Below, one piece after another: positions 3 through 14,155 of a stretch of 64,000 bases of DNA. A model generated the notes under the pieces. That model was given only the letters and a program-made list of their open reading frames with translations, had not been told where the DNA came from and did no database searches. Position 1 is the first letter of the stretch, and the number at the start of each line of letters is the position of its first letter. The translations under genes and the position numbers were made by a program. This DNA comes from Vermamoeba vermiformis (lineage: Eukaryota), in contig JBEWZL010000008.1 of NCBI GenBank assembly GCA_045837725.1, positions 1 through 64,000 of the forward strand, in the 5' to 3' direction.

Positions 3-155
3 CCCTAACCCTAACCCTAACCCTAACCCTAACCCTAACCCTAACCCTAACCCTAACCCTAACCCTAACCCTAACCCTAACCCTAACCCTAACCCTTAAC
101 CCTAACCCTAACCCTAACCCTAACCCTAACCCTAACCCTAACCCTAAACCCCTAA
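3..155. repeat. Telomeric repeat array (CCCTAA)n / (TTAGGG)n; left chromosome end
   Basis: About 25 consecutive CCCTAA units at the very start of the window, with 1-2 variant units and C-rich strand on +. Confidence 0.98.
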
Positions 156-179
156 AAGTCATTGATACCATGATAATGA

Positions 180-660
180 TGACATCATCACCATCATTAT
201 CATCATCATCATCATCAAATAACTTCAACTTTCATCATTTTTTTCAAAACTACCCCCTGCGGGGATTGATCCCCAGCAAGAGTGCGCGCGGAGCGCTATT
301 AGATCCAAATAGCATTCTTTTTGCTCTTTTTTATGCGTGAAATGATGGGAATCACGCGCGTTAGCGCGACTATCCCATACTTAAAGCGTATGTGTACCAG
401 AGAACCATCATGGATACCATTGCAATGATGATCATCATCGTCATCATCATCATCATCATCATCATCATCTACTAATTTCACTTTTCATTGACTTTCTTCA
501 TAAGTTACCCCCTGCGGGGATTGATCCCCAGAAAGAACGCGTGCGGAGCGCGACTAGATCCAAATCGCGTTCTTTATGCTCTTTTTCACGTGAAAACGAT
601 GGGATTTACGCGCGTTAGCGCGACTATCCCGTACTTAAAGCACGCGTTGCTGTTACTTTA
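180..660. repeat. Telomere-adjacent ~255-bp tandem duplication (two diverged copies, each a (CAT)n tract plus a hairpin-rich core)
   Basis: TACCCCCTGCGGGGATTGATCCCCAG...CGCGCGTTAGCGCGACTATCCC.TACTTAAAGC at 251-390 and 506-645; (CAT)n tracts at ~184-217 and ~430-470. Confidence 0.9.
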
Positions 661-1919
661 CATTGATTAGTATACCAATGATGAAGAATGACATCCTTCA
701 TTCTTCCGTTGATTTAAAGCATTCGTGTACCAATTAACATTCATTGATTAGAATTAACAATGAAATTTCATTCTGTTATCCTCATCATTTCATTCATTTT
801 TATTTGGGGCCCCGCGGGGATCTGCGATGAAACCCCTCACGCATCAACTCTACCAATATCAAGGGGTTAATAATTGATTATATATATATTAAATCGTAAA
901 TTAACTTACCTATTGACCACCGCGCTGATATTCAGTTCGCGCACATCCGCTCATGTTTCGCAGCCGAATTCACTAACTTTAATCAGACCCTTGCACTAAC
1001 AATGTAAACGATCTTATAATGCAATAATAAAATACATATCGAATTGACTTACTTTTAGCGAGATCGACTCGCGATTAAGCACGGGGATCAACGGGGATCA
1101 GCAGTAAATGCGAACATGAATTAATTCTAACAAAATAACGGGTTAGTAAGCGCTTTTATATGATAATAAACATAAGTTACCTTACCAATTAACTACCGGG
1201 CTGATTTTCAGATCGTAAATCGTCTCAAGTTGCGGATCGATTTCCTTCTCACTGTCAACTATTTGAGTCGCTATATTAATATAAACCGCTGGTATTTATT
1301 TAATATGATCTATTTTCAATACTTACCAGTGCCTTTTCTTCGTGCCAACAAAATATTAAGCGCGATCAGATCGCGTGCCTCGGTTCCATTCAATCGCTCC
1401 CACATAATGATCTGTATTAAAAACGATGTTACTACCTTATAATTATTATAGAACGCAATGTACTTACATTTCGCATTTCGCAGTCGTACTTTTGTTCGCG
1501 ATCCAAGATCCCCAAGTCCAACATCGACGTAATCAGGCCAGCTAAACAATAAGCGCATTAGAACAACTATTAAAAGTGTTATTTAATGTAATTTACTTAA
1601 GAGCCATCAGTGCAGAATTTTATCGAGATCGGTCGCGACCAAAAATTCTGGGGCAATCTGTAATAACAATACGAGTTAGCATATTATTGTACAATAATAA
1701 ACTAAACGATATTATACAGAAAATTCGGATAAAATGCGAGCACTAAGCTCGATCCGAATATTCCAATTATTTGACACAAAATTTAAATTGAAATTATACA
1801 ATATTTGTATTCAAAAATATTACCCTGATTTATCTCGGTCTCTGCACCGAGATTCGCGCAAGTCTTGATCTCGCGCACTGTCTCGCGCTGCAATTAGAAC
1901 GGATTTTGATGCCAATTAC

Positions 1920-2420
1920 ATTATAACCACGACGCTTGTTTTAAGCGTATGAAATGCGTGTGAAACATGCTCATTCTTCATGTTTCGACCAATTTAAAGC
2001 ATTCGTATACCAATGGACAGGCATTGATCCCATTGATACTCCATTTCATTATAAGCACGACGCCAGCATTAATACGCGCGTAAAACATTCATTCTTATTA
2101 TAACCATGACGCTAACATTTAGCGTACGCATGAAACAGGCATTTTCATCATGTTTCAACACATTTAAAGCACGCGTGTACCAGTTAACCAACATTGATAC
2201 TTCAAAAATGAAATCTCATTATAGCCATGACGCTCAGATAGAGTGTACGCGCGCTGAAACAGAGCGTTCTTTCTGTTTCAGCAGATTTAAAGCACGTGTG
2301 CAAGTAAATGGCATTGATACCATACCAATGATGAAGCATGATACCCTTCATGCTTCTATTCACTTAAAGAATTCGTATACCAGTTAACTAACATTAATTC
2401 CATTTTCACAATGAAATTTC
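1920..2420. repeat. Degenerate subtelomeric patchwork repeat
   Basis: Recurring TTTAAAGCA..CGTRTACCA and CATTGATAC motifs at ~1993, 2164, 2286 and 2364; also at ~381 and ~713. Confidence 0.6.
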
Positions 2421-2519
2421 ATTCTCTTTTCTCTCTTTTCTTCTTTCATTCTATTATGCAACGACGCTGAAAGTCGTTTGGCGCGTGTTAACTATCAATA
2501 AGAACTATTGCAATAAGAA

Positions 2520-2910
2520 TAAATCGACCCTTGTGGTCGATCTGATGCGAATCTATTTTCGCATCAACTTGTCATCCAAATAACTCGCGCTGAACGGCCG
2601 TTGCGACCGTGGCGCGTCACTTTCTGCTGTTAATGATCTTTAAATAAAAAATATTTCGACCCTTGTGGTCGATCTGTTGAATTGCTGATGCGAAATAACC
2701 CATGCAACCGTTTTCGCATCAGCTCTGATCCAAAATAACTCGCGCTGGAACGGCTCTGGTGCCGCGGCGCGTTACTATAGGCTGCAAATGAACTAATTGT
2801 ACGATGATAACTAAATCGACCCTTATGGTCGATCTGTCAAGGTTTAATAAAAATAGCATTCCAGATGACGCGTGCAAATTCAGCATATTGAAATAACTCG
2901 CGCTGAAACG
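2520..2910. repeat. Three tandem ~130-160 bp hairpin-containing units
   Basis: TCGACC-N5-GGTCGA at 2524, 2656 and 2816; AATAACTCGCGCTG at ~2579, 2734 and 2892; GATGCGAA...TTCGCATC stems in units 1-2. Confidence 0.85.
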
Positions 2911-4007
2911 ACGTTGAGACAAAACATAAGTAAAGTAACGCCAAAAATCAATGAGTTTATTTGAAATCGTCACACAATCACCATTGGGAAGATCCGATCA
3001 CAAGCAGGTGGCACGTTCTGTATAACCAGTGCTGACTGGCGCCGTAATAATATGCATTGGAAATAAATAATTGACGGGCAGTCGTGGTAAATCTGTCCGT
3101 AACTCTTTTAGTAATTCGATCTTTTTTTCTGAACCGCGAGTAACGGTCACTTCCGGATTTAGAAAAAATCGACATTCGTCTGCTGGGAAAATCGACACTC
3201 GTCGAGTACCGGACAATAGTCTGTGTCGGGACATAACCCCACACGACCAGAAACGCCGTCGAAATATTTATAACAATACAACCACAAGCTGGCATAACAC
3301 GTTAGCAATTGTTGGCTTCGTAACACGAGTTGGTTGGACTTGCTAGGAAGACTCAAGTCTTCTTTGCACAGCGGATTGTTCCTGCGAACGTGCTAATTGC
3401 ATGCTCTGCCCTGCAAGTGCAGTGATCATTAGCGTCAGTAACCTTTATTAATATAATTATTTTTTAGTTTATTAATTAATATTCTTTCAGTAAAGCCGAT
3501 CAACGTTGTTTTAAATGGCGAAGTTGCCCCATTCGTGCAAGCCAAGACCATTACACCATAATCAAGAGAGCAGGTAATAGGTTTTTATCAAATTGCATTT
3601 TTTACTGTATTTAGATCGCAATACTAATTTCAGATACGACGGCAGATTTTGCGCAGACAACAAGTCTTTGGTCGGATTGCTGTATTGTTGAGCGATGCAA
3701 GTAAGGGGCTCAACAATGATGAATGATAGCACCTGGGGGGTAAGTTATTTTAATTTACTTTTTTAAATCAATTGCGCGGCATCTCACCGTTTTTGTTCTT
3801 GTAGCACTACTGGCCTGATTTTGTTGAAAGCGTGCACCTGGTGAATGTTTTCAAAGTAGATGATGCATAGCGCTGGCAGGCCCGGCTGAAGTTGGGTAAG
3901 TCTCCTCTCTCTCTGAATTTTGTGAGATTAACTAATCCGATCAGTTTCTCCTTCACAATAGCTGCGTGATTCTCACTGCCCTGCTATACCGTGACTCAGC
4001 TCGACAC

Positions 4008-4374
4008 CGTCCAGTTATTGGACAATCCCTCAGTGTGGCTCGAACCGTCCAGAAGCAGGATGCTTGTTGGTGCTTGGCTGGCACCGTTCCAATTATTGGA
4101 TGGTCCCTTCAGCTGCATGACTCGCACGTTCTACTTATGGATAGTCCTCTCGGTGCCGAGGCCTAGACGCAACACCCAAGATTTAAACGCTTCATTGGTG
4201 CAGGCTGGCACCGTTCAAGTCATGGACGCTTTGTGGGTGCGTGGCTCGTGCTGTCCAAGACCTGGACATCCCCTCGTTGCCTTGATTAACCCATCCAAGT
4301 CTTGGAAACTACATTGTTGCTTGGCTTGCACCATCCAGACTCTGTGCTTGGTTGGCCCATCCAAGTCTTGGATG
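4008..4374. repeat. Array of ~10 degenerate 17-nt CRTCC-N7-GGAYR motifs, ~40-nt period
   Basis: Motifs start at 4008, 4046, 4086, 4127, (4173), 4212, 4252, 4292, (4332) and 4358; best copy is CATCCAAGTCTTGGATG. Confidence 0.75.
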
Positions 4375-4429
4375 CTTTGTAATTGTAAAATAAACCTTAT
4401 TTTGTTGTACAAGGTGCCATTCAGGGGTA

Positions 4430-5135
4430 TGCAAAGGGTGTACAGAGCACTGTACAGGGTGTGATGGGGCATACAGCATGCTGTACGGGGGGTGCGATGG
4501 GGTGTACAGCTTGCCGTACAGGGGTGTGAAGGCACGTACAGCGTGCCGTACAGGGGTGCGAGGGTGCGTACAGCGTGCCGTACAGGGGTGCGAGGGGGTG
4601 TACAGCGTGCTGTATGGGGGTGCGAGGGGGTGTACAGCATGCTGTACGGGGGTGTGAAGGGGCATACAGCATGCCGTACAGGGGTGCGAGGGGTGTACAG
4701 TGTGCCATACGGGGTGTGAGGGGGCGTACAGTGTGCCGTACGGGGTGTACAGCGTGCTGTACAGGGGTGTGATGGGCGTACAGTGTGCTGTACGGGGGTG
4801 TACAGCGTGCCGTACAGGGGTGCGATGGGTGTACAGCACGCCGTACAGGGGTGCGAGGGGGCGTACAGCGCGCCGTACGGGGTGTACAGCGTGCTGTACG
4901 GGGGTGTGATGGGCGTACAGTGTGCTGTACGGGGGTGTACAGCGTGCCGTACAGGGGCACGATGGGTGTACAGCACGCCGTACAGGGGTGCGAGGGGGTG
5001 TACAGCGCGCCGTACGGGGGTGCGATGGGTGTACAGCGTGCCATACGGGGGTTTGAGGGGGCGTACAGTGTGCCGTATGGGGGTTCGAGAGGGTGTACAG
5101 CGTGCCGTATGGGGGTGTGAGGGGGCGTACACCAA
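4430..5135. repeat. G-rich degenerate satellite, unit ~GTACAGCGTGCCGTACAGGGGTGCGAGGGG
   Basis: About 700 bp of GTAC/GGGG-containing units with strong G/C strand asymmetry. Confidence 0.95.
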
Positions 5136-5459
5136 AGTGTATGCATGGTGATTTTTTTTTTTGTTAACAAAAATCCTAGCCCCAGCCCTAAATCCTATAT
5201 AATAGCATAGTCCCAGTGGTTGAGTGCTTGGGCACTCCCACCTGGCACTATGCTCTGCCTGTCTGTGCATTCTCAAGAGTTGAAGTGGCATCTGGCTTTA
5301 CAGTAAGTTAATTAATATTTTTACCTTGGCACTGCTTGCTGGTAGATTAGCCAGTGCTATTTAATTTACATTTGATTATTTTGTTAGCCTTGAAATTAAT
5401 TATTTTGAAAATTATTTGTTTTTCCTGGGTCAGCCACAGCTACATCCAGGCTTTTTGCG

Positions 5460-5795
5460 ACTTTGTTTTTTCAGCCCCCGGTTCCTCGTGGAACCAACCC
5501 CTTGCTAGGACATTGTTTTTTGGCAGGGTCGGTTCCTCGAGAAACCGGGGGTTTTGGACATTGTTTTTTTCCAGGGGCGGTTTCACGTGATACCGGCCCT
5601 TTTTGGACTTTGTTTTTTTTCGGTTTGCTTCTTGGACTTAGTTTTTTTCAGGGGGCGGTTTCACGTGATACCGCCCCTTGTTTGGACTTAGTTTTTTTCA
5701 AGGGGCGGTTTCACATGATACCGCCCCTTGTTGGACTTTGTTTTTTTCAAGGGTCGGTTTCACGTGATACCACCCCTTGATGGACTTAGTTTTTT
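5460..5795. repeat. Palindromic minisatellite, ~50-nt unit GGGGCGGT-TTCACGTGAT-ACCGCCCC plus GGACTT(A/T)G-T7
   Basis: Six hairpin units; four carry the TCAC(G/A)TGA core (5583, 5661, 5711, 5760), and the first two are more diverged. Confidence 0.9.
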
Positions 5796-6328
5796 TTTAA
5801 TTTCTTTAGGACTTTATATTTTTAACCTCTCTCTTAGGACTTCAATTATACCAAGCCTTCCTGGACTTTGTCTTGCAGCCTTGAACTCTACCTCCTTTGT
5901 AAACATTTGTAAATAAAACTTCTTTACATCCAGACTTTGTTTTTTAATTGGACTATAGTAGAATTACCCTTTCATCTAAAAACAAAGTGACCCATTTTAT
6001 ATTATTCTATTTAACTTGTTTGACTTAGCTATTTTGAACATGAGTTTAAATAAAAAGAATGTTCGTGAAAAAGTTCAACAAAAAACAAGTTTAAGGCCTC
6101 TTTAAACTCTATAACCTGTGGGTTTTTATAACCCAGAAGCCTACTATAGTTGCGTTTTTATTACAGTTCAGATCGTGCAAGTTCACAGCCTTCCAATACT
6201 AGGTACGTTTAATTTATAAATTATAAAAAAAATAACGATAAATAATAAGAAATATTACGATATAATTATGCCAGCATTTATTTTAAATTTTTAGTAATTT
6301 TAATTTTAATAATTTCCCGATCCTTCAG

Positions 6329-6443
6329 AGGTGTCCGTTCTGCTTCCCAAGGTTTGCAATCTAGTAGCGAATGGGTACGGACACGAACGGAACGAGATTC
6401 GGGTACACGATCCAGTTCCCAAAAACCACGTAGCAGTGAGCAA

Positions 6444-6484
<41 letters not shown>

Positions 6485-8456
6485 AGGTCGTGGTCGAGGT
6501 CGTGGTCGAGGTCGTGGTCGTGGTGGTAGTCGTGGAGGCACACATCCAGATCGTGCAAGATCTCAGGAGGACGATCAGAGACAATCAGCGAACAGGCGTG
6601 CGGAGCGCTCGTCAGAGGGCGATGATTTGGAGCAAGAATCCTCTGAGGATAAAGGCTCGCAGCGGGGCTCACCATCAAAAAGATCTCGCCCTTCAAAAAA
6701 TCAACGCGAGAAATCGAAGCAATCGAGCGTTGAAGTTGACCCTGACGCAACGCAAATAGTGACCTCACAGCCAAGCACTCGGCTGTTAGAAGTGCATGAC
6801 GGTGATGAAGAAAGTACCGATGCGCAGAATCGCATCGAGGACCAAGTGGAACTTGAGATTGACGCGGTAAGTTTCTTAGTTTCTATAATATAGATAATCT
6901 AACGGCTTGTAATAGAGTGTACCTTCAAACACAAATGTTCAGGACTCGGCAGCAGAAGCGCCCCACGAAAACGACGGTCAGGTATCGACAAAACGTAACC
7001 ACAAAAAGTTGGTAGCTAATATTTGAGCTAATAGGAAATTGAAAGAGAATCCCCAGCCGTTACCGAAAGTGCGGTACATAACCAACAAGAATCAGGACAG
7101 TCTTCTGATTCTTCACAAAAACCCCTATCTGAGGGACATGGAGATGTCTCTTCTCTGGATAATGAAGCAGGCTCTGGTGCGGAAGTTGGAACAGAAGCGC
7201 AGGATAGTCAGGTAAGCAAATAGTAGCTACGGGCAGCCCATAGCTAATATTTGGCACAGGCAAATGACGGAGGCCAGTTCGAACCTGCTTCTTCTTTGGA
7301 GATTGAAAGCGCTCAAAGACCCAGAGCCGAGCCAAACCAAAACCAGATTATTGACACCCCTGTAGTGAACGAGCCAAGCCAAAACCAGAGCGTTGATGCC
7401 CCTGTAGTGAACGCAAGCAGTCAAGCTGTGCAGGGGGTGGGAAAGGGAGACAAAGCGCCTGCTAGAAAAGTAAGTCGATTCATACAGCAATGCAGCTGTG
7501 CTAACTTTGGTGTTGAAAGAGAAAGCGTGTCATTAATGACGAAAATCTCTATGACTCAGAGAGTGATGGTAGAAGATCCTCAGCCAAGCAAAACAAGCGA
7601 CGAAAACAAGTAGGCAAAGTTAGTGAGGATGACTACCCAACGGGCAAAAAGCCAACGTCGAAAAAAAGGAAGGCCACCAAGAACAATACTAATGAGAAGC
7701 CTGCAAAAAAGGTGGGTAGCATTATAAAAACTGAATATTTCTAACGCATTCATATTTAGAGAAAGGTTAATAAAGAAAGCTCGTCATCGGAATCAGAGGA
7801 GGATCCACCCCCAATTAACTTCTCTGTTCGAAAAGCCAAGGTCTATAACCGCCCACAAACTGCTCCCTTTCAAGAGGTAGTAGAAAGAATTATGGCGAAG
7901 GACAACGTTGCTCAAGCTGAAGCTGAAGCTGAAGCCAAAAAGGCCCTGAAAAAGTTTCACGAACAACTGAGTAAGTTTTAAGTTTAAAGTTGATGTTAGC
8001 TTACAATTTTGGTGTTTAGCAATGAAGGAGATGAATATTTACAAAAACACAGAGGGTGTGTTTTTATCAAAACGCCGCTTTGCATTGATAGTCAGGGACA
8101 TCACTTACAACGCTGCAGATGAGGAGTATAGGTGGCAAAGAGGAGCCTTGGATGCATTGCAATATGCTTCTGAGGGTTTTATTTCCGATCTTTTTACTAT
8201 GGCACAGCTCGCCACCATTCATGCCCGTCGTGAAACGGTCATGGTTCGAGATATGCAATTAGTATATGAAGTGCACAATGTCGCTTCTGATGCTGTTTTG
8301 CATAACTTGAAGCATAGCCTTCAAGACTCTGCAAAAAAAGATGGAATTAAGCTTTCTACTAAGCCTGCTTCCACTGCAAAGTCAAAGCCAAAGTCCAAGT
8401 ACAGTAAAAAGGAGCTTAGAGAGCTTGTTCTTAAAGAGAAACAAGCAAAGAAATAA
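6329..8456 (+). CDS. Giant histone H3-fold protein, CenH3/CENP-A-like (>=609 aa; start codon not located)
   Basis: In-frame exons 6329-6866, 6916-6981, 7035-7211, 7260-7469, 7520-7711, 7760-7970 and 8020-8456, all with GT-AG introns. The last exon aligns to the H3 fold (MKEMNIYKNTEGVFLSKRRFALIVRDI...RWQRGALDALQYASEGFISDLF...IHARRETVMVRDMQL). (GR)n tract at ~6443-6540. Confidence 0.85.
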
Positions 8457-8559
8457 GATTTTATTTTTGAATGAATTTATTTAATAAATGTGGTTTTGTC
8501 TGATTTGGGTTGTGAGCTGTTTATCAAGTTTTTGTTGGTTTTGCCAAGCTGGTTCACAC

Positions 8560-8828
8560 CATACGAATTTCGGATGCCTATACTACCTTGGTTATTTCAG
8601 AGAACAACCCTTTCAGACCATCCGATTTTCGGACGCTCTCAAAAGCAGCTACGAAAATGTAATAGCCAATATTCAGATGTGCAAGGCATCCGAACTTAGG
8701 ATGGTCTGAAAGTGCTGTGAAATCTCTTATAAGCCTATTGAAGACCATCCGAAGTTCGGATGCCCATGTGGAAGAATATCAGCTATGAAAGTTACATAGC
8801 TGCTTTTTGACCATCCGAAGTTCGGATG
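8560..8828. repeat. Array of five 17-nt palindromes CATCCGAA-N-TTCGGATG (59-68 nt period) with nested inverted repeats
   Basis: Motifs at 8560, 8619, 8687 (inverted context), 8746 and 8812. TTTCAGACCATCC/GGATGGTCTGAAA and AAAAGCAGCTA/TAGCTGCTTTT form longer inverted pairs. Confidence 0.85.
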
Positions 8829-9033
8829 GCTGTGGGAGACGCTTTGACAAAGAATAAACTCATTTATTTTACATCATACAAGCAGGGACTCTTCACCCCT
8901 CAACCTTTAACCTTAACCCCAAAGGTATATTAATTCAGCAGAAGTCTAGGATATATCACACACCAATTCAATTTTGAAGCCATGAGTAAGAGCAACCCTG
9001 GCTGTTTTATTTACAAAACAGTAGTAAAGATTT

Positions 9034-11288
9034 TCAGCTAATGATACATCCTGCTCTCTTCTTGGGCTTAGTTTGCTTTGTGGGTTTTGCAGGCCTATTA
9101 TCATCTTCCAAAAAGAGCAAATATTCAGTGCATTTGAGTTGCAGGTAATCTGAATTAGCTGCTTCTCCAAATTGTAAAAGCTCTTGTACAAACTGAATGT
9201 CCATGGTTGGACTCTTTCTGCCACCCTTGGATAGATGCATCTTGTCTGCCATAGCTCTGCACAAGTAGTGCATGAAAGATTGCAAAGCAAATTTGTCAGC
9301 AAACCTCAATAACTTCAAAACACATTCAACTACACGCGAATCTCCATTTTCCACAAGTGCAATTGAGTCAGTATAAATAAACTCCAGTAATAGTAGAGCT
9401 GATTGGAGGTCCAAATCTGCTACATTAATGTCTTTTGTTGCTCCATTATCAGTCCATAAAGTTAACAGTTCTGGAACACGTGCTTGCAAGACGAGCTACA
9501 GAAAGATTGAGTTAGCAGTATCCACAACTATTTTTAAACTTGTTGCTTACTGAATGGGCGTGTAGGATGGACTGCCCAACCTGAATTTTCAAATCTGCAT
9601 GGAGTACATTGTTTATCAAGCCCTTGCATGTCTCTACCAAATTGGAACTGAAAGGAGTTTAGTGAATTATGATATTTGTGCATAACTTACCCTGCCTCCG
9701 TGAGTATTGAAGAAAGAATTGAAGGCTCGCTTTTGCTAATTGCACTTTTGATCTCCGTGGCAAATGTTGATAACGGCTTTGTTGGGTAATAAATAAACAG
9801 ATTGCGCTCAGGGTCTACAATCGCATTGCTTAGCTTCTTTGTAGAATTTTCTAGGTCGAGTTAGAATTTACGCGTCATAACGAGTCAAATATTACCTGAA
9901 AGAATCAACGTTTGCAAGATGTACGGAATGATCATTTTCATTGCCTGCTTATCAACCAAGTCGCCACACACGGCAAAGAACGGCTTGGCAGGGTTACGAA
10001 ACTCGCAAAACTTCTCGACAAAGTAGAGCACAATCGAGCGTGCATCAATGTCACCTGACAGTGTCAGCAACAGATGTACGTAGTCATCTCGCTTACCATT
10101 GTAATCACTCGGCAAATACTTTTTGATGTCAGCGCCACTTTTGATTGCATCCTCGAGGATATTAATGCGCGATATAAAGAGGATGACTGGCGTTTCGGTT
10201 AAAAATTTTGAATTGCTCACATCGCGGTAGAGCGCGAAAGCAGACTGACGATCATCGACGTAGCCGGTGGACTGTTCAACCAGAAAACTATAAACGATGA
10301 TGATGAGAGAAAGTGTGCCTTAGATTGTCATTGACAACGTACGTGTCGGCTGGTACAAACAACAACATCGCTGAAACTGCGTCAAATGCGTGTATCCACT
10401 TCTTGCGTTCGTTTCGCCGACCTCCAATAAGTACAGCTCTGAACACCATTAGTGCCGCAATATCGCACCATAGAACTTACTTGACACTCGAATTGCCATA
10501 CGAGTGTTGATCTTCAACGATTCCAGTCAAGGACATTGACAAATCCCCGACATCGTCCGGGGTTAAATCGCGCTTTGAATTGAGCACCTCGCTCGCCAAG
10601 GGAATAAACCTTGTGACCAGTCAAACTATGCGTCGAGTTAGCAATGAGTTTGCAAAATCTTACGTCTTCAACCAGTGCTTGGCGCGCAACACTTCAGGGT
10701 CCCACACAGCGTTGAAATCGCTTTGAAACTCTTCAGTCTCCCACAGCTGCACGATGTCTTTCATTGCGATGGCAGGGACCTTACGACAAAATTAGCGTCG
10801 TTGCGGAAACAAGGGACTTGCATCATTTTCCGCAGAGTACCGCACAAGACGTTGGGCTAAATTATCTGCTCGTTCTCTAATCTTTGAAGTGTCAATCGTG
10901 ATTTGAATATAGGCAAAGCTTACTTCAGCATTTTTCGAAACTTCTGCGTACTGTTGTAGAGACCAGCGTATCGAACTAATTAATAAATTCCAATAGAATG
11001 AGGGCTCATGTTCTTCTTGCTTATCAAAATACGAGTTGAGTTGTTTTCGGAAGTTGTTCGGCAAAGTTCTATCCAAACCTATTTTAATATTTAAAGTTAA
11101 GTATTCCTATAAGCTCGAATGACTCGTCTCGTTAAAATAACGCGATTAGAGGAGCTAATTTAATTATAATTAATTTGAAAAATTCTGATTTATTTCTGGG
11201 TCCACACCGAGTCTCACAGAATAACAGTGCTACGACACTTACCGTTAACTAAAATTTTGAAATCCGCTTCGTTGTTGTTTAAAGCCAT
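9034..11288 (-). CDS. Degenerate G-protein alpha domain fused to a BTB/POZ domain, C-terminal CaaX (CIIS)
   Basis: Spliced model: MALNNNEADFKILVNG-LDRTLPNNFRKQL ... SLTGIVE ... LIGGRRNERKKWIHAFDAV ... ETPVILFISRIN. In-frame exons then give HADLKIQVGQSILHAHSLVLQARVP...LLEFIYTD...LLRFADKFAL (BTB), ending KKRAGCIIS. Confidence 0.8.
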
Positions 11289-11439
11289 TCTAAACCGCAA
11301 TCCTGGTTTTATACACGGCGCTGTGGTGTTTGTTGCAAAACGGGAAGATTTTAACAATTCAAAAATAGTTTAGTTGTCAATTGCAATTCTAGTAGTTTGA
11401 ACTGAATTTATTACAAGTTATTAACTTATTATACAAGTA

Positions 11440-13758
11440 TTAGGTCTTAAAAATCTTCACCGTTTTGACAACAGGTCCGCGGCAGATCGGGCACGTTTTC
11501 AGCATCTGCGCGCAACTCTCGCAGAATCCTAAATGACCGCAATCCAGTAGAGCAGTGGTGCGAAGGTGGTCTTTTTCTTGGCATATAATACATAGCTCTT
11601 CGTCCAGATCTGCTTCGTCGCGGATGTTGATCTTCTTTTCCTCCTCGACGTTGTTGATTATTGTTGTTCGCTAGTCGCTTAGGAGGTGCATGCAGTACTT
11701 GAAGAAGATTGTCCGCACCGTGTTCAAATGCCTTGCTGAGCTCGAGCACCTGTTGCACGAAGAACTGACCTTCAGAACTCAACAGACCGAGCAGTGTGTC
11801 CAGCTTGGTCAAGTCAGGTCGTGCGCCGTCGAGTTTGAACTGCAAGATGTCAAAGCCCATGTTCTCGAGGGCAGTCACCATGCGGCCTTTGCGTCCAGGG
11901 TTATCGAGGAACGAGACGAATACGAGCTTGGCAGGGTAGACCTCTTGGTAGTACTTCTGAAACATGGACGGGAAGTAGTCCGTGCCGTTGAACTTCTCGT
12001 TCTCAACCTCGTCCGTAACCACGATGAAGAACTTGATCTTCTTGCGCTGTTGGTAGTACGGCCACAACGCACAGGCCGAAGCAGTTAATCCATCAGCTTT
12101 CATTTCTGTGGCCACACGCACGACTTCAGGAATTGTCTTCGGGTTGAGTGGCGGATCTACTAGTCGCACGTTGAAGAATTTGAGCTCCGCAGAGGTGAGC
12201 ACTGTCAACACTGAGGCAATAATGGTGGAGGTTCGAATAGCCACGTCCATGGAATAGCTAGCATCACCCAACACGACCACTGGTGGTTCTAGCTCGAGGC
12301 TGATTTTGTTCAATTTCTCTTCGGCCAGAGGGATCAACAGCTCGTAGAACGGCGCGTCGATCTTTTTGAAGTACAACAATCGTTCCATCAACTTGCCGTA
12401 GGTCAAATTCAGCTTCTCGTCTTTTGATTCGAGTCGCTGTTTGATAATTTGATTGACTTGAGGGTGATTCAACTCCTCGTGGTACCACATCAGTGTTTCG
12501 AGGGGCGTGTATTTCGCGATCAAGGGCTTAGCTTCGTGCGGCAAAGGCTTGATATGAACTCGCAAGTACGAGTAAGGGATTTGCAGTGCTTTGAACTCGA
12601 TGTTGTCCATTTTGAATCGACCAGAGAGCACGTCGACCAAGTTGTCTGAGCTCAAATACTGTGCTACGGGCAAGGAACTGTCGCGTGGAGGTTCAGCGCC
12701 GTAGACGAAAGACAAGAACCACGGCACGGCAAAGTCTTCTGGACTCAAGTGCACGAGATCGGACAATTGCTTCCACGGTTCCTGCACAGACACGTCAGAA
12801 TGATTATATAAAATAAAACAAAATCTTTGGTTTGGAAATATTTTTTGGTGACGTGGCACTGATAGTCAAAGACTTACCTTGGGCATGTGCAATGCAAAGT
12901 ACTCCAAGTCCTGCGCGGGAATTGTGCGCACCCATTGCTTGATTCGTTTGGCCAACGAGCCGCTCAAGCCCTTGTCCAACAACATTTCACGCTGCAAATC
13001 ATTTTCTTGCGCCTTCAAAGTGTTTAATGTCGTTCTCTTCGCCGTGCCTTGTTTCTCCAATCGTGCAACACGTTTTTGCAGTGCTTTGACACGTCGTTTA
13101 GCGTCCAACAGTTCGAGGCCGCGCAGCACCTCGACCAAACTGAACTGTGTCTTGTATTCGTTCAATATCTTGTCCACGATGGTGTACCACTGCTTGGACC
13201 AGCAAGTCGCGAGGAACTTTGGTCTGCCTCCTTTGGCCAGTTCAATGCCTTGGCGCAGCAGTGTGAGTGCTGTGGCCACGTAGATCGGACCGCTCTTTGT
13301 CGCGAAATCAACGTGTTCTGCGAGACTGCTCTCGGCAACAAATAATTTTTTCATCGCTTGCACGTGATTGAATTCTTCATTGCCTTCAATGTGGTCTGGC
13401 TTAACTGCGGGACGTGGTTTTTGGTTCTGGATGTGCTCACAATATTAATCTCACGTAATACAAATTTTTAATGCACTTACACTTTTATGTTTTCCGGGGT
13501 AATCAGCTGGAATGCCGTCGGGGTTCTTTATTTAAGATATTTAGAAATTTAAATATTCAAAAAAATTCAATTAGCCACGAAATAAATACCTGATTCGGAT
13601 TATAAGCTTGCTGACCCTCTTGAGCAGTAAGAAATTGTATAGCTGCATTTACATCACCGTCGCAAATCAATAAGACGGATTCCAAAACATCGCGATCGAT
13701 ATTATTGCCTTGGAAGTGGCGTTGCAGCTGGTTAATCTTCGCTGTATTATCACCCATT
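11440..13758 (-). CDS. CUE/UBA-like, helical, vWA (MIDAS) and C-terminal C3HC4 RING protein
   Basis: N-terminal INQLQRHF..IDRDVLESVL...DGDVNAAIQFL; VVVLGDASYSM and FFIVVTDE (vWA); terminal exon CIICQE...DCGHLGFCESCAQMLKTCPICR. Confidence 0.75.
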
Positions 13759-14155
13759 GTGTTGTGCACGTTATGTAATCAATAATGAAAGGGACAGATT
13801 AAAAATGGTCTTTATCGTTTTCATTCTCGCAAATTTCGCAGTCCTAACAACGCCACACTACCGATCAGTCGTTCGCGGGCTTGTTTGGTACGTTATTTTA
13901 TTATCATTTATAAGTACTCTTCCCAACGCTGCACCACAGAATTGCTTTGGCGGATGCGTCGATCGACGTTGCCAAATACCTTATATTATTTTAAATATGA
14001 CACAAAATTATTCTGTACTAATTGGATGCGATTTCCATTGTCGTACATTTTAGAAAATAATTAAATTAATATTTTTCGTTATTTTGACGATTTTTTGCTG
14101 TCGTCCACGCCAGGTGATAAATATAATAATACTTTGACGCTATTAAAGCATTAAG

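Follow-up and report, generated by a model that had tools for sequence, protein, structure and literature searches.

The closest described systems include the Helentrons, HINEs and DINE-1 elements (HLE2), among them the Culex element Helentron-Cq-32A with its histone fragments (PMC4067079). A captured histone H3 is also described from hAT elements of Dothideomycetes (PMC6710886), and in Paramecium, Helitrons pile up at chromosome ends together with satellites and telomere-like stretches (PMC13085455). Below we describe the end of a contig from Vermamoeba vermiformis (assembly GCA_045837725.1, contig JBEWZL010000008.1, positions 1 to 64,000; this whole 64,000-nt stretch is called the window), where the gene of a divergent histone H3 variant lies in a stretch of low sequencing depth. 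We tentatively read this gene as the cargo of a ~2.87-kb non-autonomous insertion at 6068-8934 with Helitron-like ends. Because the gene is found in a quarter-depth stretch with repeated, transposon-like ends, a mobile element may carry its own chromatin protein.

The putative element resembles Helentrons in having a subterminal repeat near its 5' end and 38-60 nt from its 3' end, a nested 5' inverted repeat, a 3' stem-loop, a T-rich end, internal tandem repeats and captured histone sequence, and in having no target-site duplication (TSD). It differs from them in that the subterminal pair is imperfect (13 of 16 positions) and no RepHel partner is known. The Culex cargo consists of broken fragments 83-84% like the host gene (PMC4067079), whereas the cargo here is an open, intron-bearing and deeply diverged H3 variant with no copy of at least 82% likeness in the mapped run. 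As in the Dothideomycetes, a DNA transposon would be carrying a histone H3 gene; the gene there is a canonical H3, intronless in P. fijiensis, present in 26 to hundreds of copies in an element with a TIR (terminal inverted repeat) of 20 bp, an 8-bp TSD and a hAT domain, whereas here we see a CenH3-like variant with seven introns, at low copy number, and no TIR, TSD or transposase. The protein shares with CenH3/CENP-A (yeast Cse4, Dictyostelium H3v1; PMC2995078) a longer loop 1, the absence of Q68, a divergent fold and a long unique N-terminal tail, with ~620-640 residues against 619 in Dictyostelium. It is unlike them in its predicted extra C-terminal helices, its separate clade and its apparent low dosage, and it is known here by sequence. 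The locus also resembles the Paramecium Helitrons: at the chromosome end, satellite-rich units are stacked in one direction, and their centre-facing sides bear short telomere-like stretches. In Paramecium, though, the telomeric repeats belong to the flank and the elements code for transposases of 9-10 kb; in the window the telomere-like hexamers form part of the shared end, and a transposase is lacking.

Our survey of the literature, by titles and abstract openings and with few subscription papers covered, returned no transposon-borne CenH3-like variant, and the transposon-captured histones described are canonical copies or broken fragments (PMC6710886, PMC4067079). If our reading is true, an intact CenH3-like gene of a separate clade in a polymorphic insertion would offer a natural comparison of carrier and empty chromosomes, with which to ask if centromeric or anti-silencing chromatin can be provided by a mobile element itself.

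Copy state and ends of the gene-bearing unit

The features of the unit and its left flank are as follows.

5765-6008, no strand: flank to the left of the low-depth stretch, covered by one contig whose depth (515.9) resembles that of the right flank
6068-6148, minus strand: multi-copy left arm, its outer edge adjoining variable flanks
6167-8456, plus strand: H3-variant gene, eight exons in one open frame (depth 178.6-204.7)
8560-8828, no strand: right array of five palindromic 17-mers, copies 1-3 sharing a contig with the gene; variants occur elsewhere in the genome
8829-8934, minus strand: multi-copy right terminus, with variable flanks after 8934/8935

Reads and contigs were mapped at 82% likeness to positions 5150-14149, a range that begins to the right of the left array and the satellite described in the next section. 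Of the 20 runs that contain sampled words, the four mapped are X1 (DNA), X7 (an aquifer metagenome, which holds near-identical pieces of the window) and X5 and X21 (RNA); joints with a side of fewer than 30 letters were treated as weak. In X1, a single contig covers 6539-8746 (the gene and three units of the right array) with 0 differences and a depth of 178.6, and 6122-6435 is present at 204.7. The left flank stands at 515.9, and the right flank at 516.6, 547, 687.7, 695.3 and 793.2. The depth ratios, near 1:3:4 and with no explanation in GC content, would be expected for a four-copy genome with the gene on one homologue, with the reservation that contig depth is not copy number. Our best reading is that the insertion would be hemizygous and present on roughly one in four chromosome copies. 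Mean bin depth in X7 is 1.0 for the gene and 2.0 for the flank.

The edges of the low-depth stretch are repeats. Summed depth in X1 peaks in the bins of the two arms (7247 and 6058), and loose ends with other flanks are found at 6067/6068 (2+2 contigs in X1, one in X7) and at 8934/8935 (three contigs in X1, two in X7). The gene is bracketed by the multi-copy segments 6068-6148 and ~8550-8934, whose other copies have different flanks; the copies of the left arm diverge at 6148-6153, and the right end is present in many copies without the H3-variant gene. It seems that the gene is part of a polymorphic insertion that is non-autonomous and has repeats at its ends. A preliminary description of the window had proposed a non-autonomous element of ~4.8 kb at 4008-8828. 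The insertion with repeated ends survives from that proposal, and its extent is not supported: depth is uneven across it, one sharp repeat boundary falls within it, at 6067/6068, and its right limit is at 8934 instead of 8828.

The same data bear on the main rival explanation, which we consider unlikely without dismissing it. In that view the gene would be a resident CenH3 of the host, with the arrays and arms as unconnected subtelomeric repeats (one in intron 1, one behind the 3' untranslated region), and the flanks would be segmental duplications of three to four copies. This explanation is consistent with the lack of a second X1 contig at 82% or more over 6650-8449, with the 200 identical bases in the aquifer run and with a 98% relative in public data. 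Harder to reconcile with it are the depth of both flanks, 3-4 times that of the gene and changing in steps where the two repeat edges lie, and a 2-kb flank contig that has no variant, as a single locus would.

For the insertion that we prefer, the ends can be read in some detail. Taken on the minus strand from 8933 to 6068, the sequence follows the HINE/DINE-1 plan of PMC4067079. The left arm has a sequence like a subterminal inverted repeat (subTIR) at 6125-6111, a stem-loop at 6108-6088 and a T-rich tail, and is the putative 3' end of the element. The right terminus has the best internal telomere-like site, an inverted repeat at 8903-8926 and the other subTIR-like sequence at 8930-8915, with the putative 5' end near 8933. 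The subTIR-like repeat lies 3 nt inside one end and 39-43 nt inside the other, and the stem-loop 16-20 nt from the T-run, the exact terminal base being uncertain by a few nucleotides. For HLE2 the published spacing is 2-4 nt at the 5' end and 38-60 nt at the 3' end for the repeat, and 8-35 nt from the 3' end for the palindrome, and the distances here fall within these limits. Random windows equal the partner repeat in 12 of 5000 cases and shuffled windows in 61 of 5000, a placement unlikely by chance.

No TIR was found for the element or for the proposed 4008-8828 cassette, no TSD longer than 4 nt across four boundary pairs, and no transposase, all as in the preliminary description. The longest direct repeat is 4 nt and the flanks of other copies differ, in keeping with the lack of a TSD in HLE2. 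All three right-flank types seen have A before the TT start (read by eye), and the 3' end has the T-run, while the 5' side fits A|T better than T|T. Targets of Helitron-type elements are T|T or of TNAT type, and nested and multi-ended copies are described (PMC11417382, PMC5148889).

If the unit is mobile, rolling-circle copying of a Helitron2/Helentron-like kind would be the most likely mechanism, the minus strand giving the direction in which the element is read. The enzyme would be a RepHel protein supplied from another locus; it would nick near 8933 and copy through the 17-nt palindrome array, whose palindromes may be transposase-binding sites, and through the gene. Copying would stop after the stem-loop at 6108-6088, and the copy would enter an A|T or T-rich target without duplicating it. 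Capture of the gene would have been as genomic DNA, its host-type introns kept.

Several observations weigh against this reading. The subTIR-like pair has one gap and a longest identical run of 4, and the HINE/DINE-1 family definition requires subterminal inverted repeats with at least 11 identical bases (PMC4067079); because that rule fails, we do not file the element as an HLE2 member, though its layout fits. At least ten other places in the window score as well as the pair. Neither terminal hairpin has an energy that is significant by itself (z -1.96 and -0.97), and no RepHel was found in 150-3960. The gene piece in X7 (7867-8066, 200 bases, identical) has a depth of 4.15, like the flank pieces at 2.3-4.1, and the empty-site joint from 6067 to 8935 is absent among the 15 joints listed of 53. 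The deepest X1 flank contig is missing 24 bases at 12812, in an intron, and there are small indels at 11344 and 11657, which are strain differences or assembly errors; X1 may be another isolate because of the 24-base difference. The first in-frame methionine inside 6068-8934 is codon 451 of 621, which fits a gene reaching beyond 6068. Finally, the near absence of RNA over the gene, which would favour the insertion, is weak evidence: X21 has none at 6350-8149 and about one read at 8150-8449 but comes from a strain only ~90% alike, and X5 has none but is shallow.

The two arrays and the sequence left of the gene

Left of the unit lie the following features.

4008-4374, no strand: left array, ten units ~40 bp apart with a degenerate 17-nt palindromic core
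4375-4413, plus strand: tail after the left array, aligning in direct orientation with 8842-8882; AATAAAC at 4389 and 8853
4406-5131, plus strand: G-rich 32-bp satellite with 19 palindromic 16-nt cores
5160-5203, plus strand: degenerate telomere-like hexamers, then TATATAAT (5196); second-best internal telomere-like site, score 29
5250-5302, plus strand: candidate first coding exon, with ATG at 5250 and a GTAAGT donor at 5303, in phase with the 6167 exon
5466-5800, no strand: six-unit CACGTG-type palindrome array, multi-copy in the genome (X1 bin depth 5563)

Reiterated subterminal motifs at both ends are a feature of cut-and-paste TIR transposons (hAT, CACTA, Mutator). Here the shared motif is real; the two arrays, however, point in one direction, and of the pair only the right array is part of the low-depth unit. 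The exact pattern CRTCC-N7-GGAYG, which the preliminary description had noticed in both arrays, occurs at six sites in 64,000 bases, every one inside the arrays (left 4046 and 4358; right 8619, 8687, 8746 and 8812). The right array has five units at a spacing of 59-68 bp, four exact and one with a single mismatch, just as had been counted. The earlier figure of about ten copies on the left can also be reproduced, with two units exact, two with one mismatch, four with two and two with three, though the count rests partly on the regular spacing (38-46 bp, the last gap 26). A matrix made from the left units places all five right sites within the top 30 of 63,980 positions, and in the reverse test the right-unit matrix places four of the ten left sites within the top 30. 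A tighter pattern has five matches per array, against 0.01 in shuffles, and two matches in 9000-64000, against 1.8 expected. The motif is an odd palindrome whose sixth base is A in the left array and G in the right.

The tails that follow the arrays are in direct orientation, and because of this we take the arrays as the same end of two related units and not as the two ends of one. The last core together with its tail is equalled in direct orientation by none of 3000 random and two of 3000 shuffled targets; for the tail alone the counts are 43 and 31 of 3000 (~1%). Both units, at 5203 and at 8934, close with telomere-like hexamers and a TATA-like motif facing the same way, and among internal telomere-like sites in the 64 kb these hexamers rank first and second (scores 30 and 29, against 23 for the next), with the polarity of the terminal telomere. 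To judge from sequence, then, the arrays look like the same end of two direct-orientation units, and the left array is probably the end region of the second, related one. In the proposed history, 6068-8934 would lie in a subtelomeric pile of related repeat ends, in which 3990-5203 would be a diverged second unit with the same end type. Past the hexamers, the 5203 and 8934 ends have no significant direct similarity, and a search for a subTIR partner of the 5203 end came up empty. The segment 5160-5203 would be the end of the left unit and/or a promoter; read and contig mapping gives weak joints at 5199 and 5204.

It had been suggested that the arrays are the two ends of a cut-and-paste cassette. 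In its fullest form, this would be one element of ~4.8-5 kb whose subterminal arrays bind a DDE transposase, with 6068-6148 as a later insertion and the short copies as internal deletions. We regard it as rather improbable. The motif is common to both arrays far beyond chance, and hAT elements carrying H3 are known (PMC6710886). In addition, 5150-5750 is multi-copy in the mapped data and another copy continues into satellite-like sequence (a contig of the aquifer run resembles the satellite tail from 5154 on), the best first exon and its TATA box lie left of 6068, and the 6-nt sequence TATACC at 3985 recurs in inverted form at 8924-8929, which could be chance. The lack of TIR and TSD, the direct array tails, the same-facing closure of both units and the depth of 5765-6008, about three times that of the gene, all speak against a single cassette.

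The telomere-like hexamers admit a further explanation, one without transposition, in which the outer 8.9 kb would be a haplotype-specific subtelomere made by ectopic recombination and telomere healing, and 5160-5195 and 8895-8920 would be relics of old ends. We think this quite unlikely. The rank and polarity of the two hexamer sites agree with it, as does a palindrome density of 4-20 per kb left of 8934 against 2.6-2.7 right of it; but the shared sequence passes the hexamers by 14 bases, its last base is the same in two runs whose flanks differ, and depth rises on the telomere side of the low-depth stretch as well.

Both repeats reported between the arrays, apart from the gene, are present. 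The satellite has a 32-bp period at 4452-5131, with outlying units from 4406. The palindrome array has six units, and its CACGTG label applies to three of them, one being CACATG and two CTCGWG. In contig scans, the CACGTG arm was found in two contigs, both unrelated, and the exact right-array palindrome in 13 contigs, each with a single exact site and none with an array; the right end gave 0 matches in prokaryote genomes.

Two inverted matches near these features may be mentioned. By eye, 5952-5961 and 6141-6150 form a perfect 10-bp inverted repeat. Positions 2944-2961 match 8853-8870 in inverted orientation at 17 of 18 bases, including AATAAAC, with no wider inverted repeat around them; this AATAAAC is probably a polyadenylation-type motif.

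The H3-variant gene and its relatives

The eight exons (6167-6202, 6329-6866, 6916-6981, 7035-7211, 7260-7469, 7520-7711, 7760-7970 and 8020-8456) give 621 stop-free codons across seven GT-AG introns, with two in-frame alternatives for the fifth 3' acceptor tested. The protein has a long tail rich in S, R, E and G, a histone fold from about 8022 and a C-terminal extension of ~55 residues. The last exon matches Pfam Histone with an E-value of 4.5e-15, and its best solved match is Cse4. Because the first methionine is codon 451, the long tail needs an upstream exon, which would most likely be 5250-5302 behind the TATA-like box at 5196; its addition would give 639 residues. Two alternatives from an ATG at 6040 have poor donors. 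Within the tail, (GGTCGT)15 at 6444-6535 encodes a Gly-Arg repeat, a likely site of arginine methylation.

By the four features that PMC7052976 uses for CenH3, the gene is CenH3-like, as the preliminary description had it. Loop 1 has 12 residues against 11 in H3, and is longer in 11 of 12 complete family rows; the conserved helix 1 glutamine (Q68) is alanine; the N-terminal tail has >420 low-complexity residues and no H3 tail; and the fold is ~34% identical to canonical H3 rows. Of the residues of the H3 fold, H113, R116, T118 and D123 are kept. Tryptophan occupies H3 position 84 and alanine position 107, residues which we take to be of diagnostic value for CenH3. The clade as a whole is not cleanly CenH3, because glutamine is kept at Q68 in four of the 12 family rows.

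AlphaFold2, run with 13 sequences, predicts the three fold helices and two extra helices at residues 90-106 and 129-143 (mean pLDDT 72, pTM 0.43). Foldseek returned nothing at an E-value of 0.001 or better, its top rows being mostly H3/Cse4 nucleosome chains, and the Atlas search yielded nothing beyond generic histone clusters. Among 1.84 billion representatives searched, there is one relative at 98% and a set at 40-56% whose alignments continue past the fold; long full-length relatives were not found in the protein searches. In a quick tree of 171 rows, from which six short or non-fold rows were dropped, 15 family rows and one long-branch row form one group (SH-aLRT 92) from ~11 lineages. No member has an informative name, and the clade with the C-terminal extension is unnamed. 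One relative, P0153, reads through the apparent intron of another, P0154, which suggests a spliced transcript for one relative. The likeness of the N-terminal tail to P0153 and P0151 is not significant (equalled in 120 and 64 of 1000 shuffles).

If the gene were the host's own CenH3, as in the explanation weighed above, all four features would be expected, and the Dictyostelium CenH3 is likewise long (619 residues) and weakly expressed (PMC2995078). The introns are of host type (48-53 nt, one 126, in the style of neighbours' introns of 42-96 nt shown by RNA joints), the relatives at 40-55% could be orthologues from related species, and a gene extending past the unit would account for the missing start codon within it. 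The retained Q68 in four of 12 aligned rows and a C-terminal extension unseen in the Cse4 or H3 matches count against this explanation, as does, weakly, the near absence of RNA. Even as a host CenH3, the gene would still mark an unnamed H3 clade with a C-terminal extension.

The insertion reading has a bolder form, which we hold to be very unlikely: a family of rolling-circle-like elements in a protist lineage would carry an intact CenH3-like histone, kept by selection across the ~11 lineages and loaded on the elements' own palindrome and satellite DNA as a selfish centromere mark. Such loading would help the element escape silencing or give the carrying chromosome end an advantage in segregation. 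The preliminary description had likewise raised a unit that might package its own chromatin or seed a centromere.

A viral origin was considered and is unsupported: the viral contigs scanned hold no relative of the H3 variant, and the family matches in prokaryote genomes are 0/133. A scan of metagenome DNA with the single protein gave one locus from 129 candidates, a CenH3-like gene end (L001, 2-261) that is 38% identical to the query and lies on a contig without the 17-nt motif.

Surroundings of the locus

The window starts at a chromosome end, and intron-rich eukaryotic genes begin at 9 kb.

3-147, plus strand: terminal telomere (CCCTAA)n, 24 copies
9034-9495, minus strand: last exon of a BTB-domain host gene in the right flank, outside the element

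The subtelomere at 150-3000 has several dispersed palindrome-rich repeat families and no intact gene. Palindromes number 7.4 per kb there and 2.7 per kb in the interior, and another 17-nt odd palindrome occurs three times (2524, 2656 and 2816). Just left of the left array, the plus strand of 3490-3960 has splice-like signals (donors at 3574, 3740 and 3896, and branch-acceptor motifs) around stop-broken frames, and would be a decayed gene or a non-coding transcript. Pfam gave no significant match in the six frames of 150-3960 with stops read as X, and a crude search of the same range for spliced open reading frames did no better than shuffles, its control recovering only the last three exons of the H3 gene. 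Rfam reported only four sub-threshold microRNA hairpins in 150-10000. Farther to the right, the minus-strand gene at 11447-13444 is well expressed and has no Pfam match; its Atlas leads (0.80-0.82, to be taken as leads only) are TROVE/vWA-like clusters, mostly viral or bacterial.

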